Assembly: GCA_016839785.1 (NCBI GenBank)
Contig: JAEOTQ010000075.1
Location: 1-46,104, forward strand
Direction of reading: 5' to 3'
Source of the DNA: Candidatus Hodarchaeota archaeon
GTDB lineage: Archaea > Asgardarchaeota > Heimdallarchaeia > Hodarchaeales > Hodarchaeaceae
DNA length: 46,104 nucleotides
Of this stretch, positions 10,239 through 33,039 are shown one piece after another. Position 1 is the stretch's first letter. Each line of letters starts with the position of its first letter. Position numbers and translations under genes: made by a program. A model generated the notes under the pieces. That model saw only the letters and a list, made by a program, of their open reading frames with translations, did no database searches and had not been told where the DNA came from.

Positions 10239-10865
10239 TCAAGTTTCGTCTTCTAAAGATTTTAGAATATTGCTAACTTGGTTTTGATACGTTAAAAGCA
10301 CCTGACCAAGAGAATCGAAGGCTTTGACTACGTTTTCTCCTGTTTGTGCAGAGGTTGTATGGAATGGGACTTTCAATTCATTATTTTCGTATTCATCATG
10401 ATACTCGTTCTCAATGCTACTGATGAAACTTTCGACGGGTTCGATATAAGAAAAATCTGATTCTACTAAATCGGATTTATTTCCAAGGATCATTATGGGA
10501 ACTTTGCGTTGAGAATAAATGAAAATCTCTTCCTTCCATTTTTCGAGAGATTGTAACGAAGTTGGGCGTGTGAGGTCAAAAACAAGAATACCTGCTCGTG
10601 CACCACTAAAATACATATTTCTGATAACATCAAATCGTGCTTGTCCTGCTAGGTCCCATAACTGAAGACTAAGCGTCTTTCCATTATGCTGCAATTGGAA
10701 TGTTGAAATATCGGTACCTATAGTCAATAAATAATTTGTAGTGAATGCTTTTCCAAGCAAGTGTTGAATAAGAGCCGTTTTTCCTACTCCTCCATCCCCA
10801 AGAACACATACTTTGAAATTTGTACGGAATATTCCCTCGGCGAAATCCATTTTTGCCCGTGGCAT
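10239..10865 (-). CDS. Rab-like small GTPase
   Basis: G1 GDGGVGKT, G2 YLLTIGTD, G3 WDLAGQARF, G4 GNKSDL, G5 TSAQTG; no C-terminal Cys. Confidence 0.93.
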   Translation of the reverse strand: MPRAKMDFAEGIFRTNFKVCVLGDGGVGKTALIQHLLGKAFTTNYLLTIGTDISTFQLQHNGKTLSLQLWDLAGQARFDVIRNMYFSGARAGILVFDLTRPTSLQSLEKWKEEIFIYSQRKVPIMILGNKSDLVESDFSYIEPVESFISSIENEYHDEYENNELKVPFHTTSAQTGENVVKAFDSLGQVLLTYQNQVSNILKSLEDET

Positions 10866-19902: not shown

Positions 19903-21003
19903 TTAGAAAAGCTGTTCAATTGGATTGAATAGATTAAATTTATCTACTCTTTCGCTTTCTTTAACATCTACCATCATTTTTCGTATGAGGGCAGCTGCGT
20001 ATTCTAATCCTTCATCCTCAAAAATTGAAATATGTTCATGTCCACTCACCTTCCACCCTGTTTTCGGGCTAAGTTTTTTGAGTTCTGAGACAAGATCAGT
20101 AATATCTGCTTCACTTGCTAGCAAATTGTTTAGGATGGTATCTTTTATTACATCTACGGTTAAATCATCCATATTAACTTGAGGTTCGGCACCTGCTTTT
20201 GGGTATTTTTGAAGTAAATCAACCCAATTCGTATCTAATTCTAGCATACTTGGTCTCATATCATTAAGTAAACTGAGGATTTGCATTTGGTCACCTTTAG
20301 GTTTTGTTAGCTCTTGTGTTAATGCTCTGCTAAAAATCCTGCAATTTACTAAACTAAATCCAGGTAAAAGTACTTTTCCTTGTCGAGCATTACCAGGTAC
20401 CAATCCAGTGAAATATTTTGACTCTAAGGAATTAATAATGACCTGTTCTAGTGTTGTAAAAGGAATTACATTACTTAGTAGGTGAATTTTCCTCTCTGTA
20501 ATACGGAAACCACGACTATAATATACTATCGGGGAAGTTTTAGCTTCTTTTAAACCGTCTACGATAGCCTGTGCAAAGTTCTCTGCCTCTTTACGAATAA
20601 TTTCATTCAAATCTCGTTTTGTTATAACCGCAGCTATAGGGTAATTGTCATAAGGTAAGAAGGAGGAAATAGATGAAGCTTGTGATAAGGAGTTTAGCCA
20701 GAATTTCTTAGTACAGGAATCTAAAATGATAATCATACCTTCCGCTGTACTACCGAACCGTTCACGTAATTTTTGCCATTTTTGCTGTCCACCTACAGGC
20801 AATAATAAACTAAAAAATCGTCCTTCATCAAATGAAAGTCGTAAATATTCTGTTTCAATTGTACCGCCAAAATCTTCCTCATAACTCATTGATTGATCTG
20901 TACGAGCAGCTAGTTTGGTTACTAACGCAGTTTTACCACCAGCTTGAGTACCTACTACAAGGAGTCTTCCCGCATTGATTGATTCTTCTCGTGTGTCTGA
21001 CAT
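19903..21003 (-). CDS. atypical Arf/MglA-like GTPase with large insertion
   Basis: G1 GTQAGGKT, G2 GGTI, G3 PVGGQ (no Asp), AEGMIIILDS, G4 TKRD; ATG 21003 lies 4 nt after the upstream TGA. Confidence 0.8.
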   Translation of the reverse strand: MSDTREESINAGRLLVVGTQAGGKTALVTKLAARTDQSMSYEEDFGGTIETEYLRLSFDEGRFFSLLLPVGGQQKWQKLRERFGSTAEGMIIILDSCTKKFWLNSLSQASSISSFLPYDNYPIAAVITKRDLNEIIRKEAENFAQAIVDGLKEAKTSPIVYYSRGFRITERKIHLLSNVIPFTTLEQVIINSLESKYFTGLVPGNARQGKVLLPGFSLVNCRIFSRALTQELTKPKGDQMQILSLLNDMRPSMLELDTNWVDLLQKYPKAGAEPQVNMDDLTVDVIKDTILNNLLASEADITDLVSELKKLSPKTGWKVSGHEHISIFEDEGLEYAAALIRKMMVDVKESERVDKFNLFNPIEQLF

Positions 21004-21007
21004 AACT

Positions 21008-22954
21008 TCAACTCCAATTGTACTTAATATTTCCAATAACCGTCATAAGATCTTTAGGATCTCTAGCACGTGCTTTTTCCAAGACTAAATGCAAATTGTT
21101 CTTTTCAGGACCCAAAGAAAGGTATTTATGAGGTCGATAAACAATTTCAACAGGATCAATACCTGCTTCATCCATAATATCGACTTCTTTAAAGGCTAAT
21201 GCAGATATTCCCTCAGGACTAGTATCATAATAGATAATATATGTTAAATCATCAACAGTAAATACTGTTTGTCTCAACTTAACATTATTATGAAGTGAGG
21301 AAACTTTAAAAGATGGAAGAGATAAGGCTTCAATCACAAGTGATTCTAACAGGAGATTTGTATCGTAAAACCAGGGATAACCGGCCATTTGGGCATAGCG
21401 ATATTCAAATTCGAATCCAGAACGTACCCAGATACTCATATTCTCAGGATGCACTCCTTTTTCGTCATGGTATATTCCGCGCTTAAAATCAATCGCTACT
21501 TGAAATATTGGTACAAATTTCTTCGCTGTAATTAAAGAGGTTGTATCTTCGCTTGAGAAAATATTCTTTAACAATCTAACAGATTGAATTTCCTCGTGAA
21601 TAAGCGTTTCTTCAAGAATTTTCATTAGTTGTTCGCTAACATGATTCCATATTCTCACTGGGAGTTTATTGGTTAAGATATAATTTCCATCAATTAGATC
21701 ATTCCGATCTACCCTTCCTGATAGAATAATATTAGCTAGTTTCTGACAAATCTCTAAAACATCAAATTTAGGTTGGCGATCACTCAGCATAAAGAGAGTA
21801 GATCGAAGAATTTCTGTTTCAACCCCGCTGTAGTCGTAAATCCATGCACGTGAGGGAATTTCCACTACATTGTCAATTACAAATTGCGAACTTTGCATAA
21901 ATGCGTTATTTTGTTTCAATTTATGAAACGGTGCAAGGATTCTTTCAAATGTCCCTTGAAGATTTCCGATATTACCTAGAATTTCACTATTGCGGTGTTT
22001 ATCCATCACTGAAAGACCGAGTAGGTGTTCTTTCTTAAGTCTTAATTCCCCAGGTTGGTCATCTCCCAGACTACTTCCCATAGTTTTCATACGCATGACG
22101 TCTGAAAGCCATGCGATGAATTTACCGATAGGATATTTGTCTATAGATGAATCATAGAATGTATTTAAACCCTTTCTGAGTTCGTCTCTAGGATAACCTG
22201 GTAGTAAATTATCCATAATTGAAAACACTTGACCTTCATTAAAATGCCCATCACTTGGATCCCGTTGGTATTTAGACCATTCAAATTGCTCTTCGATCCG
22301 TCTAAATGTGAGAGATGTCTCAATTAGGCTATCAATTTGATGAAAAGATTGCTTTGTTTGTGTTTTATGGGTTAATACGTCCTCTGATAATGCTGTTAGT
22401 ATTAAAGCATCAGTTAGTACGTTTTGTTTACGATAAGTATTGTTTGGACCAAAGTAAATATTCCGAACATCATTAACTGCTTCTCTGACATTTGTATATT
22501 CACTATAAGGCCAGAGGACTAAACCAAAAAGTTCTGGTAGTTCATGACGATGAGCCGATTGGAGTAGTTTCAGACGTTGTTCAAGTATATATGCGCGTAA
22601 TGAGTCGATATCAGAAAATAAGGACTTAATACTTGCATTTTCACTGTTCACTACATCCTTCCAGTAAGTAACATCTTCTTCAGTAATTAAATGCTTTATT
22701 TGGGTTTGAAGATCGTGTAAATGTGACTCTAATCCAAATAGATTATCATTAATTGGGACAATCACTGGAGCTAGCCACTGCTCAATCATTTGATAAGATA
22801 GGAAGAATTTTTCAGTCATTAGTTGAATATCTTCAAGATCTGAGGGTAAATTTCGAGCGGAACGAATTATATCTAGCTGGGGAAATAGATAATTTATACC
22901 AAGTTCTCCATATGCCTCTTCCAATTGTTTTTCAATATTCGATAAATCAACCAT
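21008..22954 (-). CDS. large hypothetical protein (648 aa)
   Basis: Long soluble ORF; GGAGG SD before ATG 22954; operonic with its neighbours. Confidence 0.85.
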   Translation of the reverse strand: MVDLSNIEKQLEEAYGELGINYLFPQLDIIRSARNLPSDLEDIQLMTEKFFLSYQMIEQWLAPVIVPINDNLFGLESHLHDLQTQIKHLITEEDVTYWKDVVNSENASIKSLFSDIDSLRAYILEQRLKLLQSAHRHELPELFGLVLWPYSEYTNVREAVNDVRNIYFGPNNTYRKQNVLTDALILTALSEDVLTHKTQTKQSFHQIDSLIETSLTFRRIEEQFEWSKYQRDPSDGHFNEGQVFSIMDNLLPGYPRDELRKGLNTFYDSSIDKYPIGKFIAWLSDVMRMKTMGSSLGDDQPGELRLKKEHLLGLSVMDKHRNSEILGNIGNLQGTFERILAPFHKLKQNNAFMQSSQFVIDNVVEIPSRAWIYDYSGVETEILRSTLFMLSDRQPKFDVLEICQKLANIILSGRVDRNDLIDGNYILTNKLPVRIWNHVSEQLMKILEETLIHEEIQSVRLLKNIFSSEDTTSLITAKKFVPIFQVAIDFKRGIYHDEKGVHPENMSIWVRSGFEFEYRYAQMAGYPWFYDTNLLLESLVIEALSLPSFKVSSLHNNVKLRQTVFTVDDLTYIIYYDTSPEGISALAFKEVDIMDEAGIDPVEIVYRPHKYLSLGPEKNNLHLVLEKARARDPKDLMTVIGNIKYNWS

Positions 22955-30577: not shown

Positions 30578-30652
30578 AGCCCCGTGGTGTAGAGGCTATC
30601 ATATGAGGCTTTGACCCTCACGACTCCAGTTCGAATCTGGACGGGGCTGCCA
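30578..30652 (+). tRNA. tRNA-Gln(UUG), CCA encoded
   Basis: Acceptor AGCCCCG/CGGGGCT; anticodon arm TGAGG-CTTTGAC-CCTCA; T arm TCCAG-TTCGAAT-CTGGA; G73 then CCA. Confidence 0.95.
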
Positions 30653-30693
30653 TTTCTTCTCTACATAATTTAAATGAATATAAACATTAGTCA

Positions 30694-30765
30694 AGCCCCA
30701 TAGTGTAGTGGTTAGCACCTCAGGCTCTGAATCTGATGACTCCAGTTCGAATCTGGATGGGGCTG
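30694..30765 (+). tRNA. tRNA-Gln(CUG), no encoded CCA
   Basis: Acceptor AGCCCCA/TGGGGCT; anticodon arm TCAGG-CTCTGAA-TCTGA; same T arm; G73. Confidence 0.95.
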
Positions 30766-30870
30766 TTCTAATTTTTCCCTATACGCAGCCTGCGGAAAAT
30801 TTATCTCAATGCTCGAAATCAGATCACATTTATTAAAAATTTGAGAAATATTTGAGCTACCTGAGCCAAG

Positions 30871-31269
30871 ATGAACCAAAACACACACCCATTTGACTAT
30901 TTAGCTGGACATCGGACGATCAGTTTGACGACTTATTATAAAAGTGGTAAAGGTGTAGCTACACCTATAGATTTTATTAGGAAGAATGATCACTTATATG
31001 CATCAACTAGAGTGGATTCGTATAAAGTAAAACGGTTGAGAAATAATCCCGATGCCAAAATAGCCCCGTGTACGATGCGTGGAAAGCTTAAAGGCCCAGA
31101 AATTAATGTGAAAGTGTGGATAATTCCGAAAGCAGAGGAGCAATTCGCATCTGAAACGATGGAGGAAGCGATCACTCTCTTATACAAAATTCTTATTAGA
31201 TTATCGAAATTAGCTTTTTGGAGAAAAGAGACAGAGCGACTTTACTTAGAAATCACTCCACAAATCTGA
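30871..31269 (+). CDS. PPOX-class (F420-dependent) oxidoreductase-like protein
   Basis: ISLTTYYKSGKGVATPI, SYKVKRLRNNP, IAPCTMRG. Confidence 0.85.
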   Translation: MNQNTHPFDYLAGHRTISLTTYYKSGKGVATPIDFIRKNDHLYASTRVDSYKVKRLRNNPDAKIAPCTMRGKLKGPEINVKVWIIPKAEEQFASETMEEAITLLYKILIRLSKLAFWRKETERLYLEITPQI

Positions 31270-31302
31270 GGAGTTTGATTCCTGGATTCAAAGAAAAGAA
31301 TG

Positions 31303-33039
31303 TTACTTCTTTTTTTGCCTCTTTTTCTTTGAATGAGGATGCTGTTTAAATATTTTTGCCCATGTATCACGCAATGTGCTCGTACGATTAAATACTAGGT
31401 TGTCTTGGGAAAATTCCTTTGGATCAGTGAAAAAGTATCCTAACCGCTCGAATTGATAATGGCTAGCTGGTTTAGCATTTCCTAAGCTAGGTTCTACATA
31501 TCCTTTTGTTGTTGTTAATGAGTCAGGATTGTAATCAGGCAACCCAGAGGGATCTTCACGCTTGAATAACCGATCATATAATCGAAATTCTGCTTCCAAC
31601 GCATGTGGTTTTGAGAGCCAGTGGATTGTACCTTTTACCTTTCTTCCATCTGGGGACGATCCACCCTTTGTGTTGGGATCATATGTACACTGAAGTTCGA
31701 TAATTTTTCCAGAATCATCTTTTACAAAATTGGTACAAGTAATAAAGTAAGCATTCCGGAGTCGAACTTCTCTACCCACTGTTAATCGATAAAATTTCTT
31801 TGGAGGATCCTCCATAAAATCCTCTTGCTCTATGTACAGCTCTCGTGAAAATGGTACTTTCCGAGTACCTTTAGATATATCTTTTGGATGGTTTGGTATT
31901 TCTAAATGTTCTACCTGGTCATCGGGATAATTTTCAAGAACGATTTTCAATGGATTTAAGATAGCCATTACTCGATTAGCTTCTTGATCTAGTTCTTCAC
32001 GAACACAGGATTCCAATAAACCATAATCAATATTCTTCTCTCGCTTTGTAACACCTACTCTACCAAGAAAAGTTCTCATCGCGCTTGCAGGAAATCCACG
32101 ATTTCGCATTCCTGCTATTGTTGGCATTCGTGGATCATCCCATCCCGAAACATAGTTTCCATCAACTAATTCTAACAGCTTACGTTTACTTGTAATCGTA
32201 TAGGTTACATTCAATCGAGAAAATTCAATTTGCCGAGGTTTATGCTTTAATGCACCAACGGCTAGAAGTTCATCCACAAACCAATCATATAAGGGTCTAT
32301 GGGTTTCAAACTCAAGGGAACAGAGCGAATGAGTTATTCCCTCAATGGCATCTGATTCCCCATGTGTAAAATCATAACTGGGGTAAATTATCCAATCAGT
32401 CCCTGTTCTATAGTGGCTAACCCTTTTAATTCTATACATGATTGGATCACGCATGAGTAGATTGGGAGATGCCATATCTATTTTAGCACGTAAAACCTTT
32501 GAACCGTCCTCAAATTCACCGTTACGTATCCGTTTAAATAAATCGAGATTTTCCTCAATTGTTCTGTCTCGGTAAGGACTATTAACCCCTGGTTCTGTTA
32601 AGGATCCTCTTTGTTCTCTTATCTCGTCAGCACTTAAATCACAGATGTATGCCTTTCCAGCATTAATCAAAGCCACTGCAAGATCATATAATTCCTCAAA
32701 ATAATCTGAAGCAAAATATAACCGATCCTCCCAATCAGCTCCTAACCATTGAATATCCTCTTTAATTGCCTCTACATAGTCCATGCTTTCTTTGGAAGGG
32801 TCAGTATCGTCAAAACGAAGGTTAAAAAGGCCATTATATTCTTGGGCAATACTATAGCTTAAGTAAATCGCCATTGCATGGCCAATGTGCATCCAACCAT
32901 TGGGTTCTGGAGGAAAACGTGTATGAACTCTTCCTTCGTTTTTATTTGTTCGTATATCATCAACCACAATTTTTCGGATAAAATCAAGTCCGGAATCATC
33001 CTTCTTTGTTTCATCAGGCGGATTCTCTGAGGTTTTCAC
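31303..33039 (-). CDS. glnS: glutamine--tRNA ligase (GlnRS)
   Basis: VHTRFPPEPNGWMHIGH, LRFDDT, YDFTH, ITHSLCSLEF, PRQIEFSRL, ITSKRKL, GWDDPRMPT, KVKGTIHW, QFERLGYF; AGGTGA SD before the GTG start. Confidence 0.93.
   Translation of the reverse strand: MKTSENPPDETKKDDSGLDFIRKIVVDDIRTNKNEGRVHTRFPPEPNGWMHIGHAMAIYLSYSIAQEYNGLFNLRFDDTDPSKESMDYVEAIKEDIQWLGADWEDRLYFASDYFEELYDLAVALINAGKAYICDLSADEIREQRGSLTEPGVNSPYRDRTIEENLDLFKRIRNGEFEDGSKVLRAKIDMASPNLLMRDPIMYRIKRVSHYRTGTDWIIYPSYDFTHGESDAIEGITHSLCSLEFETHRPLYDWFVDELLAVGALKHKPRQIEFSRLNVTYTITSKRKLLELVDGNYVSGWDDPRMPTIAGMRNRGFPASAMRTFLGRVGVTKREKNIDYGLLESCVREELDQEANRVMAILNPLKIVLENYPDDQVEHLEIPNHPKDISKGTRKVPFSRELYIEQEDFMEDPPKKFYRLTVGREVRLRNAYFITCTNFVKDDSGKIIELQCTYDPNTKGGSSPDGRKVKGTIHWLSKPHALEAEFRLYDRLFKREDPSGLPDYNPDSLTTTKGYVEPSLGNAKPASHYQFERLGYFFTDPKEFSQDNLVFNRTSTLRDTWAKIFKQHPHSKKKRQKKK

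Follow-up and report, generated by a model that had tools for sequence, protein, structure and literature searches.

A gene predicted to encode a bacterial-type glutaminyl-tRNA synthetase (GlnRS) was found beside a tandem pair of tRNA-Gln genes on a 46,104-nt contig of Candidatus Hodarchaeota archaeon (accession no. JAEOTQ010000075.1, assembly GCA_016839785.1); the whole of this stretch is called the window below. The synthetase and the linked tRNA-Gln isoacceptors that it would charge probably constitute a working module for direct glutaminylation. The two tRNAs carry G73 and A37 and are predicted to form a dedicated set that is distinct from the ancestral archaeal A73/G37 set. A preliminary description of the locus, made from the sequence without database searches, had started from the premise that archaea generally lack GlnRS, and this is indeed stated in the available text of two publications, in which the lack is explained by incompatibility with A73 of the archaeal tRNAGln (PMC9499178, PMC2978374).

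The window is the entire contig C26 of its bin, the source genome G000 (4.04 Mb, 248 contigs, estimated to be 84.5% complete with 3.4% contamination). The relatives compared were 41 genomes, in which f1 is the genus of G000 (22 genomes) and f2 to f5 are other families, and a wider survey of 400 Asgard genomes was scored against the curated TIGR00440 cut-off. Among archaeal orders, the Hodarchaeales, to which f1 belongs, are the one placed closest to eukaryotes.

The 578-aa product of glnS matched the TIGR00440 glnS model with 707.3 bits (cut-off 425.8) over model positions 1–524 of 524, while the archaeal glutamyl-tRNA synthetase (GluRS) model TIGR00463 gave 337 bits and thus stayed under its cut-off of 401.75. 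Pfam models PF00749, PF03950 and PF20974 were detected, corresponding to the class-Ic catalytic domain and both beta-barrel anticodon-binding domains, and the HIGH motif (HIGHA) and the KMSKS-type motif (TSKRK) of the Rossmann catalytic domain aligned with those of bacterial GlnRS. The top solved relatives were the GlnRS of Pseudomonas aeruginosa (E 8e-201; approximately 58% identity across 545 residues) and Escherichia coli (E 5e-198), followed by human GlnRS (E 1e-123; 416.6 bits) and archaeal GluRS (E 6e-50). A role of a Cys and a Gln of the binding pocket in separating GlnRS from GluRS is known from E. coli. The Cys in the THSLCSLEF motif of the window protein was shown by alignment to be Arg in 6/6 GluRS of Heimdallarchaeia (hereafter Heimdall), and the Gln in PRQIEF was present in 7/7 aligned GlnRS and in 0/6 Heimdall GluRS. 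GlnRS and Heimdall GluRS separated at 100/100 in the tree. The protein is therefore predicted to be a genuine GlnRS and not a GluRS, an ordinary member of its family in an unexpected host. Neither the open reading frame (ORF) nor Pfam revealed a eukaryote-type N-terminal extension, and human GlnRS aligned from its own residue 262 onwards. A YqeY tail was not found either, as the match to NF011291 covered model positions 11–572 of 769 and the protein ends at residue 578, so that the public name "GlnRS/YqeY fusion" is over-specific. The preliminary description agreed with the family models, Pfam, the PDB matches and the tree: it had called a bacterial-type class I GlnRS that lacks the N-terminal extension of eukaryotes, had named the same two diagnostic residues, and had held that a grouping with GluRS would speak against the call.

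By ARAGORN, tRNA-Gln(UUG) and tRNA-Gln(CUG) were the only tRNA genes in the window, and both exceeded the RF00005 gathering score of 29 (Table 1). The tRNA pair and glnS are convergent, with 538 nt between tRNA-Gln(CUG) and the glnS stop codon, in line with the earlier estimate of about 540 nt. The 132-aa PNPOx-family ORF situated in this interval is probably a passenger, since the tRNAs follow glnS within approximately 35–100 nt in most congeners (e.g., G010, G012, G015, G003, G008, and G009). The linkage recurred in related metagenome-assembled genomes, where a check of synteny had been proposed: the G73 pair was located approximately 35–620 nt from glnS in 11 of the 12 GlnRS-positive congeners, and 117 kb away in G016. 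No RNA run was listed as containing the locus; one 233-nt contig at the locus was found in a public run that is labelled metatranscriptomic and is probably DNA.

For the tRNA census, genes were collected with ARAGORN and with a 15-nt pattern taken from the 5′ end of tRNA-Gln, and the sequences of matched genes were then read. The pattern gave 67 matches in 31 of the 41 genomes, and the reversed control gave none. Within f1, the census yielded 55 genes, divided into G73/A37 genes (25 complete and one cut by a contig end), A73/G37 genes (22), A73 genes with a CUA anticodon (six) and one aberrant gene in G006. All 25 complete GlnRS-associated genes were G73/A37 and always occurred as a UUG and CUG pair, whereas all 22 unlinked genes with a UUG or CUG anticodon were A73/G37, most of them intron-bearing. 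The G73 pair was present in every one of the 12 GlnRS-positive f1 genomes; among the 10 f1 genomes without a GlnRS match, it was detected in G021 only, at an extreme contig end. The GlnRS-less genomes G001 (94% complete) and G017 (90%) contained A73/G37 genes only, G001 for both isoacceptors and G017 for UUG alone. Both sets were complete in the dual genomes G003, G008, G010, G012, G015, G016, and G021, and G009 and G020 contained the G73 pair and one A73 gene. Two tRNA-Gln genes are thus present in the window as the preliminary description had it, but its phrase "both tRNA-Gln genes" understates the finding, because the pair appears to be a re-tuned G73/A37 set distinct from the A73/G37 one.

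In the families without GlnRS, tRNA-Gln was G37/A73 in 3/3 genes of f2 (including G022 and G023) and in 3/4 genes of f5. All seven genes of f4 were A37/A73, and in f3 the UUG genes were A37/A73 (4/4) and the CUG genes G37/A73 (2/2). G73 is specific to the Hodarchaeales module, and A37 tracks GlnRS more widely, though imperfectly.

Some GlnRS-linked G73 tRNA-Gln genes were found to carry insertions of approximately 30–35 nt at non-canonical sites, in the D-loop (L158, L159, L160, and L161) or the T-arm (L141); they derive from G003, G008, G019, G021, and G020, and ARAGORN mis-names them because of these insertions. Two forced-intron "tRNA-Gln" predictions of ARAGORN in G000 (C69:31230 and C95:9167) look on inspection like tRNA-Pro(UGG) and tRNA-Val(GAC) genes whose D-loops hold introns, and were not counted.

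A37 is a Gln identity element. The window tRNAs match the bacterial Gln identity set in part: they contain G73, a weak A1-U72 pair, G2-C71, G10, U35, G36, and A37, but have C-G at pair 3-70 and A-U, not U-A, as the first pair. For E. coli, the discriminator, pairs 1-72, 3-70 and 10-25, U35 and G36 are reported as Gln identity elements (PMC9976931). The discriminator of tRNAGln is described as G73 in bacteria, A73 in archaea and U73 in eukaryotes, and the G73/A73 mismatch has been proposed as a barrier to the acquisition of GlnRS by archaea (PMC9499178, PMC2978374). As both sets of the genus have the same acceptor stem, the G73 set would be a duplicate of the archaeal tRNA and not an import. 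In the scenario that we propose, an archaeal tRNA-Gln pair was probably duplicated with its acceptor stem and A1-U72 kept, and the duplicates would then have changed at two positions read by bacterial-type GlnRS, A73 to G73 and G37 to A37. Such changes would remove the proposed tRNA-identity barrier to an archaeal GlnRS. The changed pair would have stayed physically linked to glnS, while the old tRNA set and the amidotransferase GatDE persisted and were later reduced. Three states in the genus may represent this course: an indirect one with A73/G37 tRNAs and no GlnRS, a dual one with the G73/A37 pair and GlnRS alongside A73/G37 tRNAs and GatDE, and that of the G000 subclade, in which only the G73/A37 pair would read CAA and CAG.

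In this subclade, G000, G002, G014, and G019 contained exactly three such genes each, namely the G73 pair plus a single A73 gene whose anticodon is CUA, and G004 and G005, in which the GlnRS locus is unassembled, contained the A73 CUA gene only. The census (5′ pattern and ARAGORN, with G000 84.5% complete) revealed no A73 tRNA-Gln(UUG) in the subclade genomes and no A73 tRNA with any Gln anticodon in G000, G002, G014, and G019. If the census is complete, the subclade has lost the ancestral sense tRNA-Gln genes, and CAA and CAG are read by the GlnRS-linked tRNAs alone. GlnRS would then supply all or most of the Gln-tRNA in G000, although a second type of GatDE (GatDE-II, see below) and the archaeal GluRS are still kept.

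The CUA gene was shown to be a homologue of the intron-bearing A73 tRNA-Gln(CUG), with an exon-1 loop reading UUCUAU in six genomes vs. UUCUGG elsewhere, and its counterpart in congeners has CUG with G37. Inspection by hand of the copy on contig C137 of G000 revealed a canonical bulge-helix-bulge, from which splicing is predicted to give the anticodon CUA and U37; the splice register was checked on the homologues of G016 and G012. Reassignment of UAG in G000 was considered and rejected, as TAG closes 445 of the 2033 long frames; the read-through gain was lowest for TAG (36,538 codons), compared with 104,879 for TGA and 128,178 for TAA. The CUA tRNA may be a natural supE-like suppressor, or else a repurposed or decaying tRNA. 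A second suppressor-like derivative, L205, was found in a different family from G000, 2.5 kb from the GlnRS of G032. It is tRNA-Gln-like, with A73 and an encoded CCA, and its anticodon region is UUA in an irregular stem-loop, labelled "Stop|Leu" by ARAGORN.

Several observations weigh against direct charging as a replacement of the older route and against the proposed role of the two bases. Adjacent gatD (472.5 bits, cut-off 324) and gatE (347.9 bits, cut-off 319.55) without stops and a full-length archaeal GluRS are all intact in G000, so that the indirect route has not simply been replaced; the preliminary description had proposed a search for gatD and gatE. Among the relatives, GatD was over cut-off in 36/41 and GatE in 37/41, including all four single-contig GlnRS-positive assemblies. 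The AsnRS of G000 (395 bits, cut-off 342.6) makes GatDE unnecessary for Asn; GatA was not found in this genome, in which the GatB model matched GatE only. The G73 tRNAs keep A1-U72, a reported determinant for GatDE (PMC9499178), and may thus still be charged by the indirect route. Compared with the E. coli identity set, the window tRNAs differ in having C3-G70 (not G3-C70) and A1-U72 (not U1-A72). The tRNA-Gln genes of f3 and f4 are all A73, so that G73 is not needed by every Heimdall GlnRS, and A37 is likewise present in a genome of f5 that lacks GlnRS (G034, UUG). The genomes compared are kin and counts across them lack independence, and an ancestral-type tRNA-Gln could have escaped the census in an incomplete genome.

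Much of this would be expected from redundant dual routing, in which GlnRS on the one hand and GluRS followed by GatDE-II on the other both charge the G73/A37 tRNAs, and GlnRS is accessory and not a replacement, e.g., sparing ATP or amide donor or helping under particular conditions. The lack of GlnRS in 10 of the 22 congeners fits such routing, as the indirect route alone suffices in the genus. However, the systematic split between linked and unlinked genes (25/25 vs. 22/22) suggests a division of labor, and the ancestral sense tRNAs are gone in 4/4 subclade genomes with an assembled locus, so we regard redundant routing as possible but rather unlikely. Under the preferred direct glutaminylation, GlnRS would charge the G73/A37 tRNAs with Gln and the base changes would be adaptive; these functions, like the present role of GatDE-II, are read from sequences. 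The switch to direct charging suggested in the preliminary description may accordingly hold for the G000 subclade, where only the G73 pair was seen reading CAA and CAG, but not as an abandonment of GluRS and gatD-gatE.

The GatE of G000 showed only 33.8% identity to that of its congener G010, compared with 83.5% to G002 and 42.8% to the f3 genome G028. In FastTree analysis of 15 GatE and 16 GatD sequences (loci L186–L200), G000, G002, G019, G005, and one of the two copies of G020 clustered with the f3 sequences and with a single f4 copy out of two (support 1.0 for GatE and GatD alike), which led us to reject the view of the G000 GatE as a decaying gene. Two paralogous GatDE systems, here called type I and type II, are thus predicted in Heimdallarchaeia. 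Type I was the only type in the sampled families without GlnRS, f2 (GatD only) and f5, whereas type II was observed in no family other than those with GlnRS; G020 and G033 contained both. The CUA-tRNA genomes with a placed GatE had type II only, four of them by tree and G004 and G014 by score alone. This co-occurrence may reflect shared history and not function, since the genomes are kin. Two very different GluRS types were observed within the genus: the GluRS of G000 and G001 (L172) has HIGN instead of HIGH, and its branch, at 3.94 substitutions per site, is very long and lies apart from the GluRS of G010.

The locus might also be an artefact, produced by contaminating bacterial DNA or by chimeric assembly within the bin, for which 3.4% contamination is estimated, the more so as the window GlnRS is 60–65% identical to its nearest bacterial homologues. 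The surroundings of the gene argue strongly otherwise. The acceptor stems of the flanking tRNAs are archaeal, with A1-U72, and the other genes of the window, among them Ras-family GTPases and histidine kinases, are Asgard-like. The tetranucleotide correlation to the bin mean was r 0.994–0.996 for contigs C26, C24, C137, and C183, compared with a median of 0.993 for the 91 contigs of at least 15 kb. The nearest GlnRS homologues, 64–95% identical, are labelled Hodarchaeales, Heimdallarchaeota, or Promethearchaeota, and the same locus recurs in another 11 congeners, as well as in assemblies that consist of one contig (3.1–4.9 Mb). Parts of the locus are covered by public-run contigs belonging to two studies, and in run X2 some pieces span from the tRNAs as far as the 3′ end of glnS. 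The window is genuine DNA of Hodarchaeales (Heimdallarchaeia), as the earlier view of an Asgard-like genome and its suggested check of contig taxonomy anticipated; contamination or chimerism can for practical purposes be excluded, and we consider an artefact extremely improbable.

GlnRS over cut-off was detected in 24 of the 41 relatives, including the single-contig assemblies G010, G016, G028, and G038. In the wide survey it was found in 41 of 400 Asgard genomes, all of them from the Heimdallarchaeia families f1 (12/22), f3 (21/31), and f4 (8/12), and in none of the remaining 335 Asgard genomes, f2 and f5 included. A GlnRS 57% identical to that of the window (L083) was also found on a contig labelled Thermoplasmatales archaeon; in trees it fell among bacterial sequences beside Cloacimonadota (87/87), and it may represent mis-binning or a further archaeal acquisition.

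The f1 GlnRS formed one clade (100/99), and those of f3 and f4 formed another (98/90 in a careful 56-row tree and 98/100 in a tree with eukaryote-like proxies). Eukaryotic GlnRS was represented in the trees by virus-borne proxies only and by no cellular eukaryotic sequence; the proxy tree included the eukaryote-type proxy L282 and three giant-virus sequences. The best solved match of L282 was human GlnRS (444 bits vs. 406 for E. coli), the GVMAG proxies were ambiguous by PDB scores and L248 was of the bacterial type. IMG/VR contigs (L210–L231 and L244–L272) were seen to contain many bacterial-type GlnRS (49–58% identity), and L282–L285 from the same source are eukaryote-type with an N-terminal extension. 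The backbone of the 56-row tree was a polytomy; a branch with support of 54/99, recovered in 58% of bootstrap trees, set Bacteria to one side. In the proxy tree, Bacteria and both Heimdall clades were placed apart from the proxy group (86/77), again on a backbone polytomy and with Bacteria monophyletic in 35% of bootstrap trees. The window GlnRS is thus placed with bacterial-type enzymes and apart from the eukaryote-like proxy.

Quick trees were contradictory, with f1 inside Bacteria beside Syntrophales/Bacteroidia (97), or f3 and f4 basal, or Bacteria monophyletic (97). In an approximately unbiased (AU) test, a single clade of all 21 Heimdall GlnRS was the better tree (log-likelihood +61.4, p-AU 0.909). 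"Two independent acquisitions" and nesting within Bacteroidia/Syntrophales were dropped as readings in view of the AU test and of the careful searches, in which the backbone collapsed. The trees are compatible with the horizontal transfer from bacteria that was suggested in the preliminary description, but with a backbone polytomy they neither demonstrate it nor fix its direction.

The tree position of the Heimdall GlnRS bears on where GlnRS arose. An old GlnRS that originated in the stem shared by Heimdallarchaeia and eukaryotes, or existed there already, and was inherited vertically or served as the source of the bacterial-type enzyme instead of being imported from bacteria, would be consistent with the branch that sets Bacteria apart in the GluRS-rooted maximum-likelihood tree, with a provisional tree of the form (eukaryote-like,(f3f4,(f1,Bacteria 97))), and with the single Heimdall clade, which the AU test did not reject. 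The archaeal-GluRS N-terminal domain on the f3/f4 enzymes and the confinement of the gene, among Asgard, to the class nearest to eukaryotes would also fit. However, Bacteria were monophyletic in only about a third of the proxy-tree bootstraps, and the sole eukaryote-type reference is a virus-borne proxy. The Heimdall enzymes scored lower against human GlnRS (417 bits for the window and 443 for f3) than a Cloacimonadota GlnRS (474), which points to fast evolution and possible long-branch attraction to the outgroup. The distribution is also patchy (41/65 genomes of three families, none in f2, f5, or other Asgard), and we consider such an old origin improbable. If it were true, the f3/f4 enzymes would be relics of the GluRS duplication, the donor of bacterial-type GlnRS would have been an Asgard archaeon instead of a eukaryote, and the G73/A37 pair would record the re-tuning of tRNA identity at the invention of direct glutaminylation.

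The GlnRS of f3 and f4 contain an extra N-terminal domain of approximately 85 aa (Table 1), which the window GlnRS does not have. It aligned with the N-terminus of archaeal GluRS, the match to PDB 3aii beginning at residue 4 and not at 94, and BLASTP against Heimdall GluRS N-termini gave E-values down to 8e-19 with 40% identity. These enzymes are therefore predicted to be chimeric, with an archaeal N-domain on a bacterial-type body. No Pfam model matched the domain. Its AlphaFold model was helical (predicted local distance difference test, pLDDT, 83), and Foldseek returned nothing at E ≤ 0.001. In a wide VIA fold search the best Z was 6.7, within the noise range for helical models, with Z 5.1 for the N-terminal domain of yeast GlnRS (3tl4) and 5.0 for YqeY (1ng6), and hhalign against the C-terminal region of GatE gave a probability of 4.9%. 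A relationship to the GatB/YqeY tail was not established by the fold or profile searches.

Table 1. Features of the window and related loci, with their coordinates
Feature	Location	Strand	Basis or remark
glnS, bacterial-type GlnRS, 578 aa	window 31303..33039	-	ORF with GTG start, family models, Pfam, PDB matches, alignment
tRNA-Gln(UUG), A1-U72, G73, A37, CCA encoded	window 30578..30652	+	ARAGORN; Rfam RF00005 56.9 bits
tRNA-Gln(CUG), A1-U72, G73, A37, no encoded CCA	window 30694..30765	+	ARAGORN; Rfam RF00005 62.9 bits
PNPOx-family ORF, 132 aa	window 30871..31269	+	between tRNA pair and glnS 3′ end
Ras-family small GTPase, 208 aa	window 10239-10865	-	PF00071 E 3e-38
377-aa protein, weaker Ras-domain match	window 19903-21036	-	E 1.3e-6
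A73 tRNA-Gln-derived gene, 36-nt intron	G000 C137:7569-7677		anticodon CUA, U37
Homologues of the C137 CUA gene	G002:C10:37765, G014:C20:11240, G019:C184:61821, G004:C135:18724, G005:C175:5189		
gatD, gatE	G000 C24:32674-35857		adjacent, no stops
Archaeal GluRS, full-length (L002/L290)	G000 C183:32098-33816		TIGR00463 508.7 bits vs. 401.75
tRNA-Gln-like gene L205	G032:C72:6538-6612		
f3/f4 GlnRS with extra N-terminal domain	L009:1483-3435	-	
f3/f4 GlnRS with extra N-terminal domain	L173:355-2313	-	
f3/f4 GlnRS with extra N-terminal domain	L175:136-2058	+	further examples in other loci

The two Ras-domain genes of the window are typical of the "eukaryotic signature" genes of Asgard and helped to place the contig.

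That Hodarchaeales have GlnRS is public knowledge, whereas the significance of this is not. The proteins are named glutamine--tRNA ligase by NCBI, and the available text of a 2024 preprint mentions in passing a GlnRS beside coxABC in Hodarchaeales and Kariarchaeaceae (doi: 10.1101/2024.07.04.601786). No cox genes were found in the 46-kb window. A full-text literature search, with subscription journals and closed supplements outside it, revealed no report of the G73/A37 set, the dual sets or the GatDE paralogues. A working GlnRS in an archaeon would break the textbook rule against direct archaeal Gln-tRNA synthesis. There is an apparent co-adaptation of tRNA identity to GlnRS, with an apparent comparative series from indirect through dual to direct charging, which would show how the identity barrier was crossed in a lineage placed nearest to eukaryotes and would offer a natural stepwise example of an indirect aminoacylation route being replaced by a direct one. 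Early eukaryotes and some bacteria are postulated to have undergone the same transition. Four tRNAs and three enzymes now allow a direct test of the identity-barrier hypothesis, and genomes with two tRNAGln sets of differing discriminator may offer naturally orthogonal pairs for genetic-code engineering.

Compared with known systems, the window GlnRS resembles the bacterial enzymes (E. coli and P. aeruginosa; TIGR00440) in domain order, HIGH and KMSKS-type motifs, pocket Cys and Gln and both barrels, at approximately 57–62% identity, and its tRNAs carry the bacterial discriminator G73. Unlike the bacterial system, it is found in an archaeal host in which it coexists with GatDE and archaeal GluRS, and its tRNAs appear to be archaeal in origin, with A1-U72 instead of U1-A72 and with C3-G70. 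All protein parts of the archaeal indirect pathway (non-discriminating GluRS and GatDE acting on tRNAGln with A1-U72 and A73) are encoded in G000, and GlnRS-less congeners have A73/G37 tRNA-Gln only; G000 differs from this pathway in a census without A73 tRNAs of Gln anticodon, in a divergent GatDE paralogue and in the predicted addition of a direct route. The core of catalytic and anticodon-binding domains is shared with eukaryotic GlnRS, whereas the appended N-terminal tRNA-binding domain is lacking and the enzyme falls apart from the eukaryote-like proxy. Coexistence of GlnRS with a tRNA-dependent amidotransferase is reported for Deinococcus, Thermus, and Bdellovibrio (PMC4206432), and G000 likewise has a direct synthetase plus an amidotransferase; in those bacteria, however, the amidotransferase is GatCAB and serves mainly for Asn, whereas in G000 it is the Gln-specific GatDE, in the presence of AsnRS and with no GatA found. 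In Helicobacter pylori, GluRS2 is described as a duplicated or acquired synthetase that is paired with tRNAGln via acceptor-stem identity (PMC2777447, PMC9976931). There the synthetase was duplicated, whereas in the lineage of G000 it would be the tRNA set that was duplicated, with its identity bases changed to fit an incoming synthetase.

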